DNA of 64,000 nucleotides from assembly GCA_000092065.1 (NCBI GenBank), contig CP000585.1. One strand, 5' to 3'. The stretch is from Ostreococcus lucimarinus. Lineage: Eukaryota. The position numbers and the translations under genes are program-made. Below the pieces are notes generated by a model. That model saw nothing but the letters and a program-made list of their open reading frames with translations, did not search any database and had not been told where the DNA came from. Every line of letters begins with the position of its first letter. The first letter of the stretch is position 1. This document shows, piece after piece, positions 23,596 through 34,618 of the stretch.

Positions 23596-23797
23596 GCTTT
23601 CGTCCCCGCGAGTATTCCTCGCGTCGAAGATCTATCTTTCTTTAATACAGCACTTTAGCACGAGCACCAATCGCAGATGCATCCATAAGGAGTCTGACTC
23701 AGCCTTGATATTTGAGTGGTGCGACCGAGCATTACTCGTGAGAGTTTGCCCATACGACGTCAAAATATCCCGAAAAAAGGGCTCGTCCCGACACAGC

Positions 23798-26700
23798 ATG
23801 GAGCGCCGATCGACGCGCCGCGCGACGAGTAGCGCCCCCGCGCGCGCGAAGCGCACGCCCAAGATTAATTCCCAGTTTGCCCGCGATTTTGTCGTGGGAG
23901 AAGTCGCGCGACGCACGCGCGACGACGCCGATGGGAAATCCCGGGTCTCTGGCGTCGGCAAACTGTCGAGAAAAAGTGCATCGAAGAAGAAGAAGGTCGC
24001 GAACGCACTGCGTAAGCGCTTGTTACGCCAGAAAAGAGCGTCGGACAACGCAACGCGATGGCGCGTGGGATTACGGGCGCGCGCGCCGGCGATGAAGGCG
24101 ACGAGTTGTCGAAATCTGGTCAAAGCGGTCACCGCGGGGTTACTGCACGAAGCCAACGCCGTAAAGGCGACGTGGTTGAACGGCGCGGGCGTGACGATCG
24201 CTACCGAACGACGGTCGCGAATGCGTGTTCGGACGAGTGCGTGGCATTTGGAACGTCTGTCGTCGTTTATCGGGGACACGAGTTCGTCGTTTTGGGAAAA
24301 TCATCCGGATTTCGTCGTCGGCGGCGACGCGACGAGCGACGGCGACGAGCCGAAACGCGACCCGTTCGTGCAGTGGATGTGTCGAGCGAAGGAACTGGCG
24401 CCGGATGTGTTTAGTCGTGAAATGTCTTTTGCGCGGGAGTTTTCGCGTGATGGCGCTCGACCGTTTACGACGGCGATACGTATGATTGATGAGTGGACGA
24501 CGTCGAGTCTTCGCCGATTGCACGCGCACTTTCCAGGATGTGTCGATGATAGCTGGAGAACTGGCATTCCAAGAGACATACCGCTCTTGCCGGACCCCGA
24601 GAGCGTCGACAGAGAGCATGCTGCGGGAGAAAGTGAAAATGTGATCGCATCTGATGTGTCGGCAGACGCGAGTGCAAACGCTCTTCAAGGCTTCGTCGCC
24701 GCGCCGATGTCGCACGCGACGCCGGCGCCGGTCAGCGAGAGCGGCGCTCAGCTGAGTTTCGTCGCGCAGGTTGCCGCACAAAGCTTTGCGCTCGACGCAT
24801 TTCCTATTCTCCCACTCGAAATCTTACCCGTAGAACACTTCGTGCTCGGGCTCTGGAGTTCTAAGAACGCGACGACACCCGGATCACCGCCGTCAAAGCC
24901 AAATGATACGTTTTCGCTACCCTGGCTGGATTCGGCGTGGATCGACCTGATGGATTCAACCCCAAAATCTCCACGAAAGCAGCGAGCGCGAGTATGGCGA
25001 GGAAAAAATTTGGACATGATCGTGTACGGCGAAGATGAAAAGCAAACGTGGGCTTCGAAGATTGCCGCGTTTCTCAAGCGCGCTCGATCGGCACTTGGTA
25101 ATAGAGTGCTCGATCGTGGGGCTTGGGGAGGGTCCATTCTCGATAGTCTCATCGGCGCAAATCTCACACAAAACGTCAGCGATGTATTGTCGAGTACGGC
25201 GTTTATGAACCTTGCGGCGAGGTTTCCGTACAACGCATCGACGGCGGAGCAGCACGACTCTCGCGCGTACATTCACCGAATCGTCGGCGAAATGTTTGAC
25301 AGAATCCGCGAAGGCATCGAGCCGAAGGCGGTGGTTGTGCCCGATGAACTTCCAGGTAAACCCATCGATGAACTCTCATTACGCCCCAAACGCACGGTGG
25401 TGAAGAAGAAACTCAATGCGAAGAAGGCGAAGAAGGGTCCACTGCGCAAGTCGAGAAAGGTGGCGGCGGGCGTCATCGAGCAGGTCCTGGCGAGGCCAGA
25501 TCCGCCTCGAACGGAACACACGACTGATCAGGTAGACTGGTACGCCGTTTTGGACGCACCGCTCGTTGAAATCGTCAAGTGCATCAGATGCCGTGGCATG
25601 CACTGGATGCTCGCGCGACGCATCAAAGGTATTTTGAAACGAGTCATGGCGCAACGTGGATGTCTTTCGCTTGAATTTTTGCGCGACACGCCGACAAGAG
25701 ATGCCAACGAATATCTGCTCGCTCTCGACGGTATGGGCGTGAAGACGACGTCTTGTGTGCTACTTCTTGCGTTGCATCGCACAGACTTCCCCGTCGACGT
25801 TAACGTCGGGCGTATCATGGCTCGTTTGGGTTGGGTGCCACTCGAGAGCGAAACTGCTCTTGAAGAGCTCGCGCAATACGCTCCTGAACCTGCGGTGTAT
25901 ACTTTCTTGCGCGAACGTCTTAACTCTTTCGGCGTTGAGATGCTTTACGAGTTACACTACCACATGATTACACTGGGAAAAGTTTTCTGCGGTAAGCGCC
26001 TGCCAAACTGCGGTGCGTGTCCACTTCGGGATGTTTGCGAATACGCCAAGCAAGGCGGCAAGTGCGTTGATCGACCAGACGGGCACTCTGGTCTCGCGTC
26101 TCTGCAACCAGAACTTCCCACCAGAGCTCGACCATTGAATGACATCGAGGATATTGGAGGTCAAACTGTGCCGCGCACTTCGAATGTACACGAAAACGTC
26201 GCGAAAGATGGCTCGTCGTACGTGCTGAAAGCCATCATCGCCGCCGGCGTGGAATGGGACAAGAAGGGGCGACCCGAAGGTGCACTCGCGACGAATGTTT
26301 TACTCTTGAGCGCGGCAACATCGAGAGAAGATGTTCAACTTGCATACGTCCGCCTCTCTCGTGTGGTTCACCCGGACAAGAACTCTCACCCCGACGCTTC
26401 GCTGGCGTTCAATTACATCACCATGGCGCGTAAAGTTGCGCTCAACATCACAAACAACGACACGTTGGCTCAGAATATCGAAGCTGAGCTCGAAGAAATG
26501 ATCCGATTATCGGTGGAAGACGTAGAGGAAGTGCCCATGGATGAATTTACGGGCATGGAGCTCAGTGAAACAGTCATCAAAGCAAGCAAAGTTCGCGCCG
26601 AAACACTCGGATGGTCGGTGCCGACGACTTTACTCCCGCGACAAATCATTGACGAACTTGGCGGTGAGTCGAGTGCGTGTGGCTGCATCATGGTTCCCTT

Positions 26701-27469
26701 GGACTCGAACTTGAAATCACTTGACGAAATCACAGCCAAAACGGTAGACGTCGCAATTCTGGTTCCTTGTATCTCGGCGATGAAGAAAAAGTTCCCACTG
26801 CACGGCACGTACTTTCAAGTCAACGAGGTCTTCCTCGACGAAGTTTCGTCGAATGTTCCGCTCAAAGTCGAAAAGACACAACTCTCGAAATGCAAGCGCA
26901 TAAGAGTGCTCGTCGGAACGTCCATCGGAAGCATTGCTCGTGGAATGTCGCGCGTGCAAGTCACGGCGGCGTTTGCGAGTCAACGCATCTGTGTTCGAAC
27001 GTGGAACAGAACGACCAAGCGTCCCGGACCGCTACCGCGATGGCTGTGTCCGTTCTTCCCGCAACCCGTGGAGAGACCTCTCGAGCCCGAGCCATCGCCT
27101 TTGACGAAGAACGGTCGACCGATGAACCCGACGCCTTTGTCGCCGGTATCAGTGCTAACATTGGCGCAGAGTCCGCAAATCGCGACCATGGCCGCCGCAG
27201 CGCCGGTGGATTCCGTCGAGCACAGACTCCTCGAAGAATTTCAGCGAATGTTCAAGGGCAAATCAAAGCCCAAGATGCCACCTGGCCTCAAGCGCGCGTT
27301 CAACGAGTCCAACGATGGTTCATCGCGCAAACGTCGCGCACTGTTCCCAAAAGTTCTTCGGCACCAGAAATGCGGATTCTGCCGCAATTGTCTCAATCCC
27401 AGTTTTAAACAAGCGTGTCTCACGCGGCGTAATCAGATGCGTCTGAGCATGGCGTCGCCTACCGCGTGA
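23798..27469 (+). CDS. multidomain DNA glycosylase: HhH-GPD/[4Fe-4S] (EndoIII/DEMETER-like) + J-domain + C-terminal CXXC-like zinc finger
   Basis: HhH-GPD region (~25530-26040) with Fe-S ligands CGKRLPNCGACPLRDVC; J-domain (~26300-26460) LAYVRLSRVVHPDKNSHPDASLAFNYITMARKV with HPD; C-terminal KCGFCRNCLNPSFKQAC (CGxCxxC). Lower GC than neighbours. Confidence 0.65.
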   Translation: MERRSTRRATSSAPARAKRTPKINSQFARDFVVGEVARRTRDDADGKSRVSGVGKLSRKSASKKKKVANALRKRLLRQKRASDNATRWRVGLRARAPAMKATSCRNLVKAVTAGLLHEANAVKATWLNGAGVTIATERRSRMRVRTSAWHLERLSSFIGDTSSSFWENHPDFVVGGDATSDGDEPKRDPFVQWMCRAKELAPDVFSREMSFAREFSRDGARPFTTAIRMIDEWTTSSLRRLHAHFPGCVDDSWRTGIPRDIPLLPDPESVDREHAAGESENVIASDVSADASANALQGFVAAPMSHATPAPVSESGAQLSFVAQVAAQSFALDAFPILPLEILPVEHFVLGLWSSKNATTPGSPPSKPNDTFSLPWLDSAWIDLMDSTPKSPRKQRARVWRGKNLDMIVYGEDEKQTWASKIAAFLKRARSALGNRVLDRGAWGGSILDSLIGANLTQNVSDVLSSTAFMNLAARFPYNASTAEQHDSRAYIHRIVGEMFDRIREGIEPKAVVVPDELPGKPIDELSLRPKRTVVKKKLNAKKAKKGPLRKSRKVAAGVIEQVLARPDPPRTEHTTDQVDWYAVLDAPLVEIVKCIRCRGMHWMLARRIKGILKRVMAQRGCLSLEFLRDTPTRDANEYLLALDGMGVKTTSCVLLLALHRTDFPVDVNVGRIMARLGWVPLESETALEELAQYAPEPAVYTFLRERLNSFGVEMLYELHYHMITLGKVFCGKRLPNCGACPLRDVCEYAKQGGKCVDRPDGHSGLASLQPELPTRARPLNDIEDIGGQTVPRTSNVHENVAKDGSSYVLKAIIAAGVEWDKKGRPEGALATNVLLLSAATSREDVQLAYVRLSRVVHPDKNSHPDASLAFNYITMARKVALNITNNDTLAQNIEAELEEMIRLSVEDVEEVPMDEFTGMELSETVIKASKVRAETLGWSVPTTLLPRQIIDELGGESSACGCIMVPLDSNLKSLDEITAKTVDVAILVPCISAMKKKFPLHGTYFQVNEVFLDEVSSNVPLKVEKTQLSKCKRIRVLVGTSIGSIARGMSRVQVTAAFASQRICVRTWNRTTKRPGPLPRWLCPFFPQPVERPLEPEPSPLTKNGRPMNPTPLSPVSVLTLAQSPQIATMAAAAPVDSVEHRLLEEFQRMFKGKSKPKMPPGLKRAFNESNDGSSRKRRALFPKVLRHQKCGFCRNCLNPSFKQACLTRRNQMRLSMASPTA

Positions 27470-29857: not shown

Positions 29858-31579
29858 TCACAGACCGGTTTGCTGCATTTTCTTCCCTTGCGCGTCGAAG
29901 ACGTACTTCTTGAATCGCAACGTGAGCTTTCCGTTCCCTGCACCTTTCTTGATGCCGTTCGAAAAGTAAACCTTGTACTTGCCGCTCTTCCCGAAACCGC
30001 CCTCTATTGTGCCGCACTCTTGATTCGACGTCCACACGCGCATGCCCAAGAACGCAGTCAGGTCGGATTCTTTTTTAAACATGCCTTTGCCGATGACGGT
30101 GCGCTCATCTTGCACGCGTTCGATCGCACCCTCGCGAGATTTCATTTTGAACACGCGAAGCGAACGAATCGCGTCTGGTTCGCGCTGCGTGTTAATGTGC
30201 TGAAGCATTCTCCCGTGAAACGCGAGTCGACACGTGTTTTGATGGATGTCGGTGTCGAGACGCGACGCGATGTACAGCTCGTCCGTCGGCACCGTAATCG
30301 GTTGCTCAAACTCCAACAGCGCATACTTCGCGAACGTCGGAGCGTCGAACGCGTCGACGCCCCCAGCCTCATCGACGATCGCCCTAGCCTCAGTTTCGGT
30401 CAAAAGCTCCTCGCAGTGCTTGTACTCCTTGGACGCGTCAAAGCCAACTTCGGTCAACTGCATACTCGCCAAAGCATCCGAGAGAGCGTTTTCACCACCT
30501 CGTGAGACGTCGCCGAAGAAATGAACCGTCGCCATCACCGTCGTGTGCCCGATCGTGATGTGAAACTTTGCGCCGCATTTCACAGCGCTCTTGAAAAACC
30601 GAATTTTACTCGCGCTCACGATGGCCGCGTCGAATGTGGGCACCGTGTTCGGTTCGCACACTAAACCGCGCTCGAGGACTTTCGCATCCAACCCCGCGAC
30701 GCAAATCCCCAATCGATCGCCGCGCGCGCACGAATCGACTGACTTCTTGAACATCTGCATGGACTTGATCTTCTTCTCAAGTTTCAGATGCGGAATCTCA
30801 ATCGTATCCCCCACGGCGACGGAGCCCCGAAGCGTCGTCCCCGTGAGCACCGTCCCTTGCCCTTTCACCGGAAAGCAGTGATCGACGGCGAACAAAAACG
30901 CTCCTTCCGCTTCGCGCTTCTTCTTCACCTCCGGTATTAACTCCAACAGCTTCGTTTTCAGCGCCTCGATCCCGATCGGTGGGTCCCCGCCCGAGTCCAG
31001 CGCCTGCGAATCCGCCCCGCCCGGCCTCGCGCTCACCGGCAACATCGCGCATCCCTTAAACTTTGTCTTCGCGAACACGCTCGCCAATTTCGCCTGCATC
31101 TTCGCCACCTTTTCCTCTCTCACCTCCTCCGCGAACGCATCGATCTTATTCACCGCCACGATCAGTCTATCCGTCGTTATTTCCCCCACCACCAAGCACT
31201 CCGCCGTCTGCGTCTGCACGCCCTTTTGCGCGTCCACGACCAAAATCATCAAATCGATGATCGACGCCCCCCCCAGGACCGTCTTTATCAGCGACGCGTG
31301 TCCCGGGCAATCCACCAGCGTGAACTGCGCGCCGTCGTACGCCTCGCGCGTCGCGTCGTCGACGTCATCAGGAAACTCGGCGAGAAACGACGAAAATCCA
31401 AGGTCGAGCGTGATGCCCCGCGCCGCGCTCTGCGGGCACTTATCCAGGCTCGCCGTGCTGAACGCCGTGCTGATCGCGCGCGCGAGCGACGTCTTCCCGC
31501 TGTCGATGTGCCCGAGGACGCCGACGTTGACGTTCAGTCGAGGTTTCATTGCGCCGCGCGCGACGCGCTCTGATGCCAT
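29858..31579 (-). CDS. selenocysteine-specific elongation factor (eEFSec/SelB)
   Basis: GTP-binding G1-G4 motifs (VLGHIDSGKTSL, DCPGH, NKID), EF-Tu-like domains plus C-terminal extension typical of eEFSec. Confidence 0.8.
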   Translation of the reverse strand: MASERVARGAMKPRLNVNVGVLGHIDSGKTSLARAISTAFSTASLDKCPQSAARGITLDLGFSSFLAEFPDDVDDATREAYDGAQFTLVDCPGHASLIKTVLGGASIIDLMILVVDAQKGVQTQTAECLVVGEITTDRLIVAVNKIDAFAEEVREEKVAKMQAKLASVFAKTKFKGCAMLPVSARPGGADSQALDSGGDPPIGIEALKTKLLELIPEVKKKREAEGAFLFAVDHCFPVKGQGTVLTGTTLRGSVAVGDTIEIPHLKLEKKIKSMQMFKKSVDSCARGDRLGICVAGLDAKVLERGLVCEPNTVPTFDAAIVSASKIRFFKSAVKCGAKFHITIGHTTVMATVHFFGDVSRGGENALSDALASMQLTEVGFDASKEYKHCEELLTETEARAIVDEAGGVDAFDAPTFAKYALLEFEQPITVPTDELYIASRLDTDIHQNTCRLAFHGRMLQHINTQREPDAIRSLRVFKMKSREGAIERVQDERTVIGKGMFKKESDLTAFLGMRVWTSNQECGTIEGGFGKSGKYKVYFSNGIKKGAGNGKLTLRFKKYVFDAQGKKMQQTGL

Positions 31580-32121
31580 CGCGTCGCGTCGCGCGCGCCG
31601 AGGACGCGTCGAGCGCGGCGCGCGCGCGCGCGGCGACGCTCGTCGACGCGCGCTGGCCGCGTCGGGGCGACGGGCGCGGGTTCACGGGCGCGCGCGCGGC
31701 GCGCGAGCGCGACGGGGCGACGCGGTGCGCGCGCTTCGTGCTCGAGGTGGCGAGCGACGACGACGACGACGAGGGCGACGAGGGTTGGCGTTGCGCGGGC
31801 GCGTGCGTGGTGGAGGATTCGTGCGCGGTGCGCGGGCGCGAGGGCGCGAGGAACGGGATGATGCGGAGCGTGGTGGTGGACGACGCGATGAGACGACGCG
31901 GGCACGGCGCGGCGCTCGTGCGACGAGCGACGGCGCTCGCGCTCGCGGAGTGGGACGTCGTCACGGTGTGGTGCGAAAAGGGATTGGTGAAGTTTTATGA
32001 GAGCTGTGGGTACGTGTACGAGCCGGCGAAGGGGCGAAGGTACGCGGAAGACGACGAGGCGGTGCTGCGAGCGACGCGCGATTCGGTTAGAGACGCTCGC
32101 GGGATATCTACCGGTGGGTGA
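31573..32121 (+). CDS. GNAT-family N-acetyltransferase (start uncertain)
   Basis: Acetyl-CoA binding motif A RRRGHGAALVRRA and C-terminal VKFYESCGY; listed ORF start overlaps SelB start codon so true start likely differs. Confidence 0.4.
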   Translation: MPSRRVARAEDASSAARARAATLVDARWPRRGDGRGFTGARAARERDGATRCARFVLEVASDDDDDEGDEGWRCAGACVVEDSCAVRGREGARNGMMRSVVVDDAMRRRGHGAALVRRATALALAEWDVVTVWCEKGLVKFYESCGYVYEPAKGRRYAEDDEAVLRATRDSVRDARGISTGG

Positions 32122-32146: not shown

Positions 32147-34480
32147 TTAGACGGAGTAAGTCTTCGAGCCGTCCTGGCGAACGTCGCCGCGCAGAACGAG
32201 CTCGGCGATGTCCTCGCACGAGCCGAGGAAGAGCGGCGAGCGCTCGTGAAGCGTCGTCGGTTTCTTGTCGAGTATGGTTTCGACGCCGTTTGTCGCTTCG
32301 TCCGAGCAACGAATGCCATCAGAAGATGCCGCACCGGCGGCGCGAGCGACGAAGGCGAGTGGAGCCGCTTCGAAGACAACGCGAAGGTGCGGTCGCGGGT
32401 TGCCACACCATCCGCCGTAAATCAGCGTTCGGTGCGCATCCCCGACGAGCGAACAGATGTATCGCGCGCTGTACTGAGAGCCGCTCTCGCCTCGACCGTT
32501 ACGAATATCATTAATGTACGACTTCAAGCCTTCGGGCCAGTCATCAAATCTGGCGTCGTTGAGCGAGTACACTTGACCTCTGGGAGGGCACGACATACGT
32601 TTGTTTGCCACGGCGAATTCGCCGTCAAACAACGTGTACTCGACCGCTGGACCTTCATCGCCGCACGCAAGAACTAACGTTGTCGCGCCGCTATAGTGCG
32701 CGTATCCAGCGGCGACTTGCTCGCGCCCTGGTTGCACGGCGTTCTCTTCGGCAGAAGCTCCCTCGATAGCGCGATATACGCCGAAGATTGACCCCACTGG
32801 AACATTGCAGGCAATGTTTCGCGAGCCATCGAGCGGATCAATGCACACGACGTAACCACCGTCGACATTCAACACAACAGGCGTGTCATCTTCCTCGCTA
32901 GCGTAGTACTTGACACCTCCACACTCCGTAAGGTGCCTTTTAAAGATGTCATTCGCCACGACGTCGAGCTTTTGCTGCGAATCGCCGGAAGCGTTACTTC
33001 CACCTGCGGCGCCGAGAAGTTCGCTGCCTCGCAAAGGCGCGCTCGCTAAAGCACTTGCGAGCTCTTTACTTGCGTTCGCCAGGGCGACGAGGACTTTACT
33101 CAGCATCAAGCGTTCTGTGGGCGAGCTATCGCGACCGGCGAAAGATTCGCATTCATGAATTTGTGAACCGACGGCGAACTGTCTTGCCGGATTGGAGTTC
33201 CATTGGACAACGCCGTACTTACCGGTGACCATCCAGCTTTCTTCCTTCTTGGCCATTTCTTGACGTTCACGAGAAATACCGCACCCCAGCTCAGCTTTCA
33301 ACGTACGCAAAGCTAATAGTGGTGCGGGAAAATACGCCGAGACGTCTTCGAAAGGCGTGTCCAGCTCCCACAAACAATCATTAAGAAGCCGCCGATAGTT
33401 CGCGTCTCCCTTGATGATGACGAGATCTGAAGACTTCAAGTCATCGTGAGCTTTCCGCGGGAGCGCCCATAACGGTTGTGGCTGGCACCATGCAAAGTCC
33501 GGTGTGATCGCCCACGCGCCACTACTGAGATGCGCCGCCCATCGACGGCCCATGACAGCCGTGTCCTCGTCCTCGCTCTTCATCATCGCGTCGATGGTAT
33601 CTCTGCAATCCTTGTCCATCGCATCCGACACAAAGACAGGGTGCGCCTTGACGCGAAGGATTACTCGTTGCACAGCACCGCTGGTGATCAGCGCATCCGC
33701 GAGTGCGAGGTCGCTCACAAGCTCGAAGCCGGCGTTGTCAACGACGATCGACACGTCACGCATGCCCTTCGCGAGCGCTGTGGACACCCGTTCGCTATCG
33801 TCCCACAGAAGGTACTCTTCACCAGCGTGTAGCGCTTCGACAAATGCCTCGCTTGCGCGATTCGATCCATCGCCATCCGATCCAGACTCAGGCCATATAC
33901 TCAGATCCATTCGGTTTCCCCAAAGTGCCACCATAACAAAGAGTCGAAGTTCTTCGGCGAGCGTCGACGCAGTCTTGGCTCGTTTTGAGAAAGAGTTGGC
34001 CTTCTTCGCCAGAGACGCCGCTGCCTGCGCGCCTGCACGCAGGCCATTCATTTTATCTACCGAGAACGGGTCGAAGTTAAAGAGCTTGGACTCTGAATCG
34101 AAGTAACCGATGGCGTTCAGGATGCGTCGATAAAAGTAAAACTCGACCAGAAGCCAAGGCGCGTCTAACCACGTCGTTCCAATCCACGGATCAAGGATTT
34201 CGCGCCACGTCTCGATATCAGGACCACCATCCGGTGTGATGTGTTCGATGACACTCGTCGACGCCGTGGAGAGCTCAGCCTCGAGTCTACGTAGTTTAAT
34301 CTCTGCGTCGCTCCCGGGCGTGAGTACAGTGGCATTGTCCCTGAAAACTCTTCCAAGAATGTCTTCACGAAGACGGCGATTCACAGTGTCGTACGACCAC
34401 GTTCCCGGGACGTTGTTCACGATCACGGGTGGCGTGGAACCGTCCCAAGTGCGCGGGCCCGCTGCGGCGCCATTATCCAT
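32147..34480 (-). CDS. fusion protein: N-terminal DUF89/ARMT1-type metal-dependent sugar-phosphate phosphatase + C-terminal fructose-1,6-bisphosphatase-like domain
   Basis: N-terminal half: VVDNAGFELVSDLALAD..., IIKGDANYRRL (DUF89 hallmarks). C-terminal half: FBPase motifs VCIDPLDGSRNI, VGSIFGVYR, ICSLVGDAHRTLIYGGWCGNP. ORF open to 34606 but that is 12 bp from upstream gene stop; internal Met (MDNGAAAG, 34480) chosen. Confidence 0.65.
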   Translation of the reverse strand: MDNGAAAGPRTWDGSTPPVIVNNVPGTWSYDTVNRRLREDILGRVFRDNATVLTPGSDAEIKLRRLEAELSTASTSVIEHITPDGGPDIETWREILDPWIGTTWLDAPWLLVEFYFYRRILNAIGYFDSESKLFNFDPFSVDKMNGLRAGAQAAASLAKKANSFSKRAKTASTLAEELRLFVMVALWGNRMDLSIWPESGSDGDGSNRASEAFVEALHAGEEYLLWDDSERVSTALAKGMRDVSIVVDNAGFELVSDLALADALITSGAVQRVILRVKAHPVFVSDAMDKDCRDTIDAMMKSEDEDTAVMGRRWAAHLSSGAWAITPDFAWCQPQPLWALPRKAHDDLKSSDLVIIKGDANYRRLLNDCLWELDTPFEDVSAYFPAPLLALRTLKAELGCGISRERQEMAKKEESWMVTGKYGVVQWNSNPARQFAVGSQIHECESFAGRDSSPTERLMLSKVLVALANASKELASALASAPLRGSELLGAAGGSNASGDSQQKLDVVANDIFKRHLTECGGVKYYASEEDDTPVVLNVDGGYVVCIDPLDGSRNIACNVPVGSIFGVYRAIEGASAEENAVQPGREQVAAGYAHYSGATTLVLACGDEGPAVEYTLFDGEFAVANKRMSCPPRGQVYSLNDARFDDWPEGLKSYINDIRNGRGESGSQYSARYICSLVGDAHRTLIYGGWCGNPRPHLRVVFEAAPLAFVARAAGAASSDGIRCSDEATNGVETILDKKPTTLHERSPLFLGSCEDIAELVLRGDVRQDGSKTYSV

Positions 34481-34618
34481 CCGTCCCGCTCGTCTTCGCA
34501 GAGACGCTCGACTCTCCCTGAGCATCGACGACGACGTGCGACGCGACGAAGGAGACGCCGTTGATGCCGTCGACGCGCGCTCGTGCGCGCTCAGTGCTGC
34601 GCGCATCTTTGTAGCGCG

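Follow-up and report, generated by a model that had tools for sequence, protein, structure and literature searches.

The redox-independent chloroplast fructose-1,6-bisphosphatase (FBPase) termed cpFBPase2, cpFBPaseII or cFBP2 is reportedly due to work by Serrato et al. in 2009 and Ogawa et al. in 2015. The cpFBPase2 family was described by Li et al. 2019 (PMC7195585). These enzymes are not regulated by thioredoxin f and tolerate oxidation better than cpFBPase1; recombinant forms from a plant (strawberry) and from Euglena hydrolyse fructose-1,6-bisphosphate (FBP) independently of thioredoxin (PMC4986871, PMC7195585). In DUF89 subfamily III, a group of metal-dependent phosphatases, the best substrate of S. 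cerevisiae YMR027W and human ARMT1 is fructose-1-phosphate, with lower activity on fructose-6-phosphate (PMC9062747, PMC8669784). Here, a gene of Ostreococcus lucimarinus is described that joins members of these two families in one reading frame. The DUF89-cpFBPase2 fusion gene (32147..34606, (-)) lies in a window of 64,000 nucleotides (nt), which is the whole stretch of DNA that was analysed (assembly GCA_000092065.1, contig CP000585.1).

Fusions of DUF89 with pantothenate kinase (PanK), such as human PANK4 and Arabidopsis PANK2, are similar in that DUF89 is linked to an enzyme of the pathway that it presumably polices (PMC4921024). However, these proteins contain a subfamily II instead of a subfamily III domain, the partner is a kinase and not a phosphatase, the DUF89 domain is C-terminal, and the distribution is very wide. 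Each half of the O. lucimarinus protein belongs to a known family, and the DUF89-FBPase architecture is a new variant of the two families. A preliminary description, made from the sequence of the window, had not recognised the architecture as a described one. This holds for the literature: no paper on a DUF89-FBPase fusion was found, although Huang et al. 2016 (Nat Chem Biol) may list it; no mention of a fused state was found in the cpFBPase2 literature, and the words fusion, fused and DUF89 are absent from the text of Li et al. 2019 (PMC7195585). It does not hold for public protein sets, which already contain the architecture without labelling it as a fusion. The O. tauri entries XP_022838959.1 (UniProt A0A090N3D1) and OUS48069.1 are single proteins of 763 amino acids (aa), 76% identical over both domains, and are named only 'Fructose-1,6-bisphosphatase class 1/Sedoheptulose-1,7-bisphosphatase'; the O. 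tauri protein will be listed in domain-architecture databases. The name 'DUF89/Fructose bisphosphatase' is carried by a Besnoitia besnoiti protein (P0120, XP_029218272.1, 502 aa). It was considered as a known link and rejected, with only PF01937 detectable in that protein, and no paper explaining the origin of the name was found.

Reading frame and gene models

The complete open reading frame (ORF) has 819 codons and a stop codon (32147-32149, (-)), and the gene is apparently a single exon. It was delimited by an ORF scan, by three Pfam domains in the same frame, and by fused orthologs. The preliminary description had given 819 codons at 32147-34480. The codon number stands, but the end coordinate had to be moved: 819 codons reach 34606, and 34480 marks the second in-frame methionine (Met43). 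The product from Met43 has 777 aa and is identical to the database protein P0001. All motifs quoted earlier (VVDNAGFEL, KGDANYRRL, DPLDGSRNI, GSIFGVY, and GDAHRTLIYGG) occur in the translation. PF01937 (DUF89/ARMT1-like) matched aa 121-448 (33263-34246) with 196.3 bits (E 9.3e-58), PF00316 matched aa 501-664 with 139.2 bits (E 1.6e-40), and PF18913 matched aa 674-803 with 94.9 bits (E 4.4e-27). The Pfam gathering cut-offs (25, 34.8 and 27 bits, respectively) are surpassed 4- to 8-fold. The N-terminal DUF89 domain and the C-terminal FBPase domain proposed earlier are thus both real, as judged by Pfam, PDB sequence matches, folds and catalytic residues. PF01937 and PF00316, the pair of models for which a search had been suggested, both score far over their cut-offs; no in-frame stop was found in the ORF, and no hidden Markov model score of either domain was under threshold.

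An alternative is that annotation or assembly has merged two adjacent genes, or has misread an FBPase gene containing an intron, so that the DUF89-like ORF belongs to another product. The existing model would fit this explanation. The 90%-identity cluster of P0001 includes RefSeq XP_001417955.1 (O. lucimarinus CCE9901), which has only 305 aa and splices over the DUF89 half. Its first exon encodes 20 residues (MVVLISRRGAKSLIRGLERR; 34171..34230, (-)) inside the DUF89 region, and it joins the fusion ORF at residue 535 (window 33004). From there on, residues 535-819 (285 residues) are 100% identical. However, the implied 'intron' of ~1.17 kb holds a conserved DUF89-coding ORF of 390 codons (E 9e-58 to PF01937), and the first exon is outside the reading frame shared by the orthologs. 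By this comparison, XP_001417955.1 is probably a mis-predicted gene model, which makes localisation predictions from its N-terminus unsafe. Li et al. 2019 (PMC7195585) gave the same accession the label 'Olu_cpFBPase2'. The O. lucimarinus cpFBPase2 of the literature would therefore be truncated and mis-spliced, and localisation predictions for cpFBPase2 of the Mamiellales that start from database N-termini need revisiting.

The two halves are also called separately on some metagenomic contigs (L010, L011, and L014), but these are long-read contigs with frameshifts, on which the two calls overlap or touch and the neighbour genes are fragmented as well. No stop codon separates the domains in the window or in eight identical copies, which lie on independent metagenomic or genomic contigs with the same neighbours. 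A conservation search among 5.8 billion clustered proteins found about 29 clusters, from 100% down to 45% identity, with PF01937 and PF00316 (and PF18913) in a single protein and a single frame; the O. tauri RefSeq model is also one 763-aa protein. Because the fusion recurs in about 29 clusters, an artefact of assembly or of ORF calling can be dismissed. The artefact explanation is largely refuted and is regarded as very improbable. The fusion is one nuclear gene of O. lucimarinus, predicted to encode a two-enzyme polypeptide with 819 aa from Met1 or 777 aa from Met43.

Catalytic domains, junction and predicted fold

The DUF89 half (residues 43-472; 33191..34480, (-)) was assigned to the subfamily III (ARMT1-like) metal-dependent phosphatases by Pfam, PDB sequence matches and Foldseek. 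Its PDB sequence matches include human DUF89 (6umq) and S. pombe Duf89/Duf8901 (E 1e-33 to 1e-45), and the top relatives all belong to subfamily III. Foldseek gave a template modelling (TM) score of 0.84 and a root-mean-square deviation (rmsd) of 2.8 Å to human DUF89 6umq/6umr. In Duf8901, Asp248 is the nucleophile that also binds the metal, and Asn249 and Asp286 are further ligands (Sanchez et al., PMC9062747); Asn192/Asp195 are located in the lid, Asp363 is the likely general acid/base, and Lys401 lies within the RTxK motif (PMC9062747). HMMER alignments were used to transfer these positions. Asp290-Asn291 (DNAG; 33734..33739, (-)) correspond to Asp248/Asn249 and are the predicted aspartyl-phosphate nucleophile/metal ligand and Asn ligand. 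By the same alignment, Asp328 (FVSD; 33623..33625, (-)) corresponds to metal-binding Asp286, Asp401 (KGD; 33404..33406, (-)) to Asp363, the proposed general acid/base, and the lid residues Asn231 and Asp234 (WGNRMDLS; 33905..33916, (-)) to Asn192/Asp195. The metal site had earlier been written as DNAG..E. This has to be corrected: the ligands are Asp290/Asn291 of DNAG and Asp328 of FVSD, with no Glu.

Subfamily III proteins are recognized by an RTxK motif about 40-50 aa from the C-terminus and a size of ~380-480 aa (PMC9062747). In the fusion, this hallmark is R434-T-L-K437 (33296..33307, (-)), with Lys437 equivalent to Lys401 of Duf8901. It sits 35 aa ahead of the end of the DUF89 fold (GVVQW, residue 469), in a domain of ~430 aa. 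Pfam score, RTxK and size, catalytic constellation, and fold all point to subfamily III. All 29 fused sequences keep Asn231, Asp234, Asp290, Asn291, Asp328, Asp401 and Lys437, as well as the R and K of RTxK; Thr is replaced by Ser in six of them. The domain thus shares PF01937, RTxK, the catalytic residues, the mobile lid and the fold with YMR027W, human ARMT1/C6orf211 and S. pombe Duf89/Duf8901. These known members are stand-alone proteins of ~380-480 aa, whereas the fusion adds a presequence-like N-terminal extension and a C-terminal FBPase. Other architectures of subfamily III were also encountered: P0111 (724 aa) carries PF13840 and PF10000, and P0424 (957 aa) carries two DUF89 stretches and fibronectin type III.

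The FBPase half (residues 498-819; 32150..33115, (-)) is a class I FBPase domain of the cpFBPase2 type, according to Pfam, PDB matches, a neighbour-joining tree and Foldseek. It matches the spinach, pea, pig and human FBPases in the PDB (E about 1e-52 to 1e-56), with TM scores of 0.82-0.86 and rmsd of ~1.8-2.5 Å, best against R-state structures. Residues are given in the numbering of pig FBPase, which agrees with the positions published for these residues. The metal-binding and catalytic residues N64, D68, D74, E97, E98, D118, D121, R276 and E280 are invariant in the 29 fused sequences, as are the substrate residues N212 and Y244; R243 is replaced by Leu in one sequence. The motif IDPLDGSRNI (32813..32842, (-)) provides Asp118 and Asp121 for the metal and 1-phosphate, and has Arg in place of Ser124, as in the cpFBPase2 subfamily. 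In the segment RPHLRVVFEAAP (32360..32395, (-)), His replaces Lys274, Arg276 and Glu280 are kept, and the preceding 265-273 loop is shortened. The distal-phosphate pocket is fixedly altered throughout the fused family (S124R, E213D, G214A, Y215R, K274H, and the shortened 265-273 loop).

Compared with the canonical class I FBPases (pig/human FBP1 and spinach/pea cpFBPase1), the fold and all metal-binding and catalytic residues are the same. However, the distal-phosphate pocket carries S124R, Y215R and K274H, and two regulatory elements are missing. The AMP-site residues (T27, G28, E29, T31, K112, and Y113) are not conserved, being varied or replaced across the fused family. The thioredoxin-regulated 'loop 170' insertion of spinach/pea cpFBPase1 was not found in the fusion ORF, and the stretch GVYRAIEGASAEENAVQPG contains no Cys.

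One of the two domains might instead be a catalytically dead module with a regulatory or scaffolding role. Nothing specific speaks for this explanation, apart from the NCBIfam equivalog models of bacterial class 1 FBPases, whose cut-off was not reached (best NF006778, 238.5 bits vs 368). A sub-threshold score is expected when a divergent eukaryotic subfamily is compared with bacterial equivalog models, and the domain is not placed among the bacterial equivalogs; the Pfam thresholds were passed 4- to 8-fold. None of the catalytic and metal residues varies among the 29 sequences, in either domain. As judged from these alignments, both active sites are shown to be intact under long-term selection, and a dead domain is considered extremely unlikely.

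In the neighbour-joining tree, the FBPase domain of the fusion clusters with stand-alone proteins of the cpFBPase2 type. The signature R124 / N-D-A-R(212-215) / H274 marks this type, whereas pig FBPase and spinach cpFBPase1 have S124 and K274. R215/H274 are common to nearly all of the 120 best-matching stand-alone relatives, most of which also have R124 and N-D-A; this set (~330-430 aa) includes proteins of Porphyridium, Euglena, green algae, a chlorarachniophyte, and many land plants. The idea that the altered 6-phosphate pocket (R215, H274) is specific to the fusion was therefore rejected, because it is a signature of the entire cpFBPase2 subfamily. The sequence signature identifies the FBPase half as cpFBPase2, a plastid isoform described as redox-insensitive, and not as a generic FBPase. 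O. lucimarinus separately has a cyFBPase (XP_001419675.1) and a cpFBPase1 (XP_001422674.1) (Li et al. 2019, PMC7195585). The fused and stand-alone cpFBPase2 forms share the R124 / NDAR / H274 signature, the shortened 265-273 loop, the complete catalytic site, and the lack of regulatory cysteines. They differ in that the stand-alone forms (about 330-430 aa) have their own transit peptide, whereas the fusion has ~430 aa of DUF89 there, joined at helix H1.

Across the cpFBPase2 subfamily (P0229-P0348), from red algae to land plants, most proteins have S124R, Y215R, K274H and the shortened 265-273 loop. These replacements might explain the low FBP affinity reported for cpFBPase2, or might point to another preferred substrate; no discussion of them was found in the cpFBPase2 literature.

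The last DUF89 strand (GKYGVVQW) finishes at residue 469. The junction (residues 473-497; 33116..33190, (-)) begins with the conserved 'PARQxAVASQ', which aligns with FBPase helix H1 (pig TLTRFVMEE / stand-alone cpFBPase2 'TL..F/YL'), and continues with a short variable indel loop before helix H2. On this alignment, DUF89 is joined almost directly to the mature FBPase fold, at the place where stand-alone cpFBPase2 has the transit peptide. AlphaFold2 was run on the 777-aa chain with an alignment of 50 sequences. The model has a mean predicted local distance difference test (pLDDT) score of 90.8 and a predicted TM score (pTM) of 0.91, with pLDDT of 92-95 at the junction, which suggests a defined arrangement of the two domains. 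The sole poorly predicted internal stretch (model residues ~190-220) is the mobile lid known for subfamily III. No solved chain covering both domains was found by Foldseek against the PDB.

The N-terminal extension (residues 1-42, MRAALSAHERASTASTASPSSRRTSSSMLRESRASLRRRAGR; 34481..34606, (-)) is a putative organellar (plastid) transit peptide, based on comparison of the ortholog loci. In 8/8 of these loci, an in-frame Met upstream of the conserved core (GPRTWDGSTPPV...) heads a basic segment in which S, T, A, R and P are frequent. This Met precedes the called start by 33-46 codons, or by 69 in L014, whose called start falls within the core. The eight extensions contain no in-frame stop, vs 4 and 4 stops in the other two frames, and 73 R+K vs 11 D+E; their sequence is not conserved. 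These features suggest an organellar presequence with plastid targeting, which would agree with the plastid nature of cpFBPase2. Since a transit-peptide-like extension is in frame at all eight loci, Met1 (34606) is probably the true start.

Distribution, origin and loss

An exhaustive HMMER search covered 1.84 billion representative proteins at 50% identity. The only fused clusters were P0001, P0028 and P0034, plus P0352, a fragment that spans the junction; the remaining top matches were single-domain, and no further DUF89-FBPase fusion was found among them. Because a two-domain protein would outscore single-domain matches, the fusion is apparently restricted to one clade. In this search and the domain trees, the profile across algae proposed in the preliminary description is limited to one prasinophyte green algal clade. 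One candidate for a distant second fusion (P0356, 766 aa, two matched stretches) was rejected as a tandem FBPase-FBPase protein. P0356 has two complete class I FBPase units in tandem, and the FBPase and FBPase_C Pfam domains are each matched twice.

The fused sequences form one clade in the neighbour-joining trees of both domains. Four 'unfused' FBPase sequences within this clade (P0229, P0231, P0232, and P0248) were rejected as such, being fragments that start in the DUF89 tail or linker. Ostreococcus-, Micromonas- and Bathycoccus-like loci share an eEFSec gene downstream of the fusion, in most cases separated from it by an acetyltransferase gene on the minus strand. All genus labels except Ostreococcus were inferred by combining G+C and divergence with the species that Li et al. 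list; the G+C of the syntenic loci is 49% for Bathycoccus-like, 56-61% for Ostreococcus-like, and 59-68% for Micromonas-like loci. Monophyly in both domain trees, shared synteny and the exhaustive search together indicate a single fusion event, which would have occurred in an ancestor shared by Ostreococcus and the Micromonas-like and Bathycoccus-like lineages.

Stand-alone DUF89 proteins also occur within the fused clade of the domain tree, in two groups. In the first, P0031-35 are sister to the fused P0009-12. Loci L009 and L014 are syntenic (DEAD_2 helicase ... TRM10); the FBPase follows directly after DUF89 in L014, while the DUF89 gene of L009 stops about 40 nt short of its convergent neighbour. 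In the second, P0036 comes from a short-read assembly (L015) in which the neighbours are still those of the Micromonas type (Surp, CYP38, eEFSec, and a protein kinase), and its DUF89 gene ends 43 nt ahead of the next gene. The trees and loci suggest that the FBPase half was lost or relocated at least twice. Since two lineages keep a syntenic DUF89 gene without the FBPase half (L009 and L015), DUF89 can function without FBPase in cis.

Two further features of these loci were observed. The FBPase of L014 (5001-5963, P0237), in the sister of the loss lineage, lies on a long branch, and the conserved N212-D-A motif is missing in the alignment. This divergence could be decay before loss, or could come from long-read sequencing errors. 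In L015, a DJ-1/PfpI-family gene (3994-4677, (+)) is located directly upstream of the unfused DUF89 gene (5001-6413), and the syntenic L011-L013 do not have it. The DJ-1/PfpI family includes glyoxalase/deglycase-type enzymes of damage control. The adjacency may be a coincidence or a damage-control pairing.

The losses bear on the possibility that the fusion is one of convenience, in which a stop codon and spacer were lost and the product was kept for a shared promoter or transit peptide in a compact genome, with no metabolic coupling. The very tight gene spacing (12-138 nt and 25 nt), the position of DUF89 in the exact place of the FBPase transit peptide, and the two independent losses of the FBPase half with retention of DUF89 would all agree with this explanation. 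However, both active sites have been kept across lineages at 45% identity and 49-69% G+C, and the conserved junction has a confidently predicted structure and is no floppy linker. In vitro, DUF89 subfamily III also acts on fructose phosphates, which overlap the FBPase product, and such an overlap is unlikely to be coincidental. A fusion of convenience is therefore doubtful, though together with a looser functional association it is a live alternative to the function proposed below.

Proposed function and genomic neighbourhood

The favoured reading is a bifunctional plastid phosphatase acting on fructose phosphates, composed of DUF89 subfamily III and cpFBPase2 modules with a single fusion origin; it is rated as rather probable. 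A DUF89 gene would have come to read into FBPase helix H1, replacing the transit peptide of the FBPase itself, and the basic S/T/A/R-rich extension would now probably target both modules to the plastid. From FBP, or a similar ketose bisphosphate, the FBPase module would remove the 1-phosphate and leave the 6-phosphate, without control by AMP or thioredoxin. The DUF89 module, using Asp290 (aspartyl-phosphate intermediate) and a divalent metal, would hydrolyse fructose monophosphates or related reactive sugar phosphates; the preference for fructose-1-phosphate over fructose-6-phosphate is taken from its characterised relatives. The modules together may form an overflow or damage-control valve, in which the DUF89 module works beside an FBPase that remains active while the redox-regulated isoform is off. 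The analysis shows the ORF, the domains, the conserved catalytic residues, the single origin with its restricted distribution, and the confident folds; the plastid location, the substrates and any functional coupling of the modules are what we infer.

The fusion is a Rosetta-stone clue linking two enzymes of unclear physiological role, and hints that both draw on one pool of sugar phosphates. The conserved covalent link, with selection on both active sites, is independent comparative-genomic evidence for fructose phosphates, probably those of the plastid, as the target of DUF89 subfamily III. The fusion also offers a tractable single-polypeptide system for the roles of both enzymes, and O. tauri is transformable.

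Several points weigh against the bifunctional reading. The FBP affinity of cpFBPaseII is 6.6-fold below that of cFBP1, and its contribution to FBPase activity is negligible in Arabidopsis cyfbp cfbp1 mutants (PMC4986871), so that FBP may not be the true substrate. The S. pombe subfamily III enzymes favour p-nitrophenyl phosphate and pyrophosphate with Co/Ni, and the in vivo targets of the subfamily have been termed "challenging" to establish (PMC9062747). Arabidopsis has only subfamily II DUF89 (preprint), while land plants have proteins of the cpFBPase2 type. This distribution, together with the losses at L009 and L015, implies that the two activities are not obligatorily coupled. For the N-terminus, Met1 is only 12 nt past the stop of the upstream channel gene, the open-frame statistic is modest (0 stops vs ~4 expected), and one Bathycoccus-like N-terminus (L024) is acidic. 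Short Logan contigs that end 53-55 nt past the stop were considered as transcript ends and rejected, because they stop at an (AACG)n assembly break and not at a poly(A) site.

A different coupling would be a two-step disposal. The cpFBPase2 module would take the C1 phosphate off a non-canonical or unwanted ketose bisphosphate and the DUF89 module would remove the rest, freeing the sugar, with channelling between the sites. cpFBPase2, which is widespread among photosynthetic eukaryotes, would then not be a spare Calvin-cycle FBPase, but half of a sugar-bisphosphate clean-up, whose Arg124/Arg215/His274 pocket picks a damaged or non-canonical ketose bisphosphate. If true, DUF89 subfamily III would strip the remaining phosphate in a consecutive detoxification of a plastid side-product, especially under oxidising conditions with cpFBPase1 off. 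The systematic difference in the distal-phosphate pocket (S124R, Y215R, K274H, and the shortened 265-273 loop), conserved subfamily-wide, would be consistent with such a role. So would the low FBP affinity and negligible in planta activity of cpFBPaseII, the action of DUF89 subfamily III on ketose monophosphates, the fixed inter-domain geometry of the model (pTM 0.91), and the separate cyFBPase and cpFBPase1 already present in O. lucimarinus. However, recombinant plant and Euglena cpFBPase2 do hydrolyse FBP, and there is no phyletic co-occurrence, as land plants have the cpFBPase2 type and Arabidopsis has only subfamily II DUF89. The FBPase half was also dropped, with DUF89 kept, in two lineages. 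The two losses, the land-plant distribution and the reported ability of stand-alone cpFBPase2 to act as an FBPase all speak against two steps that are obligatorily linked. Both the disposal pathway and the clean-up role for cpFBPase2 are rated as improbable, and the bifunctional plastid phosphatase without an obligatory sequence of steps is preferred.

The fusion gene is located in a densely packed region. Its convergent neighbour is a GNAT acetyltransferase gene (31573..32121, (+)), the position and orientation of which are kept in most Ostreococcus- and Micromonas-like loci; the two stop codons are 25 nt apart. Two genes downstream lies the gene for eEFSec, the selenocysteine-specific elongation factor (29858-31579, (-); euk_SelB_III and eEFSec_4th domains). 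The divergent start codons of GNAT (31573, (+)) and eEFSec (31549, (-)) are separated by about 23 nt. With such extremely tight packing, promoters and untranslated regions must overlap neighbouring genes. Past the stop of the P0008 ortholog, an (AACG)n microsatellite at 25-55 nt ends the Logan contigs from seven sequencing runs (L017-L023). Neither an Rfam nor a tRNA scan of the window gave a match. Further along the window, an ORF of 1254 aa (23705-27469, (+)) matches the 'RRM in Demeter' domain (PF15628, E 1e-29) and, weakly, DnaJ, and may be a relative of the Demeter-like DNA glycosylases.

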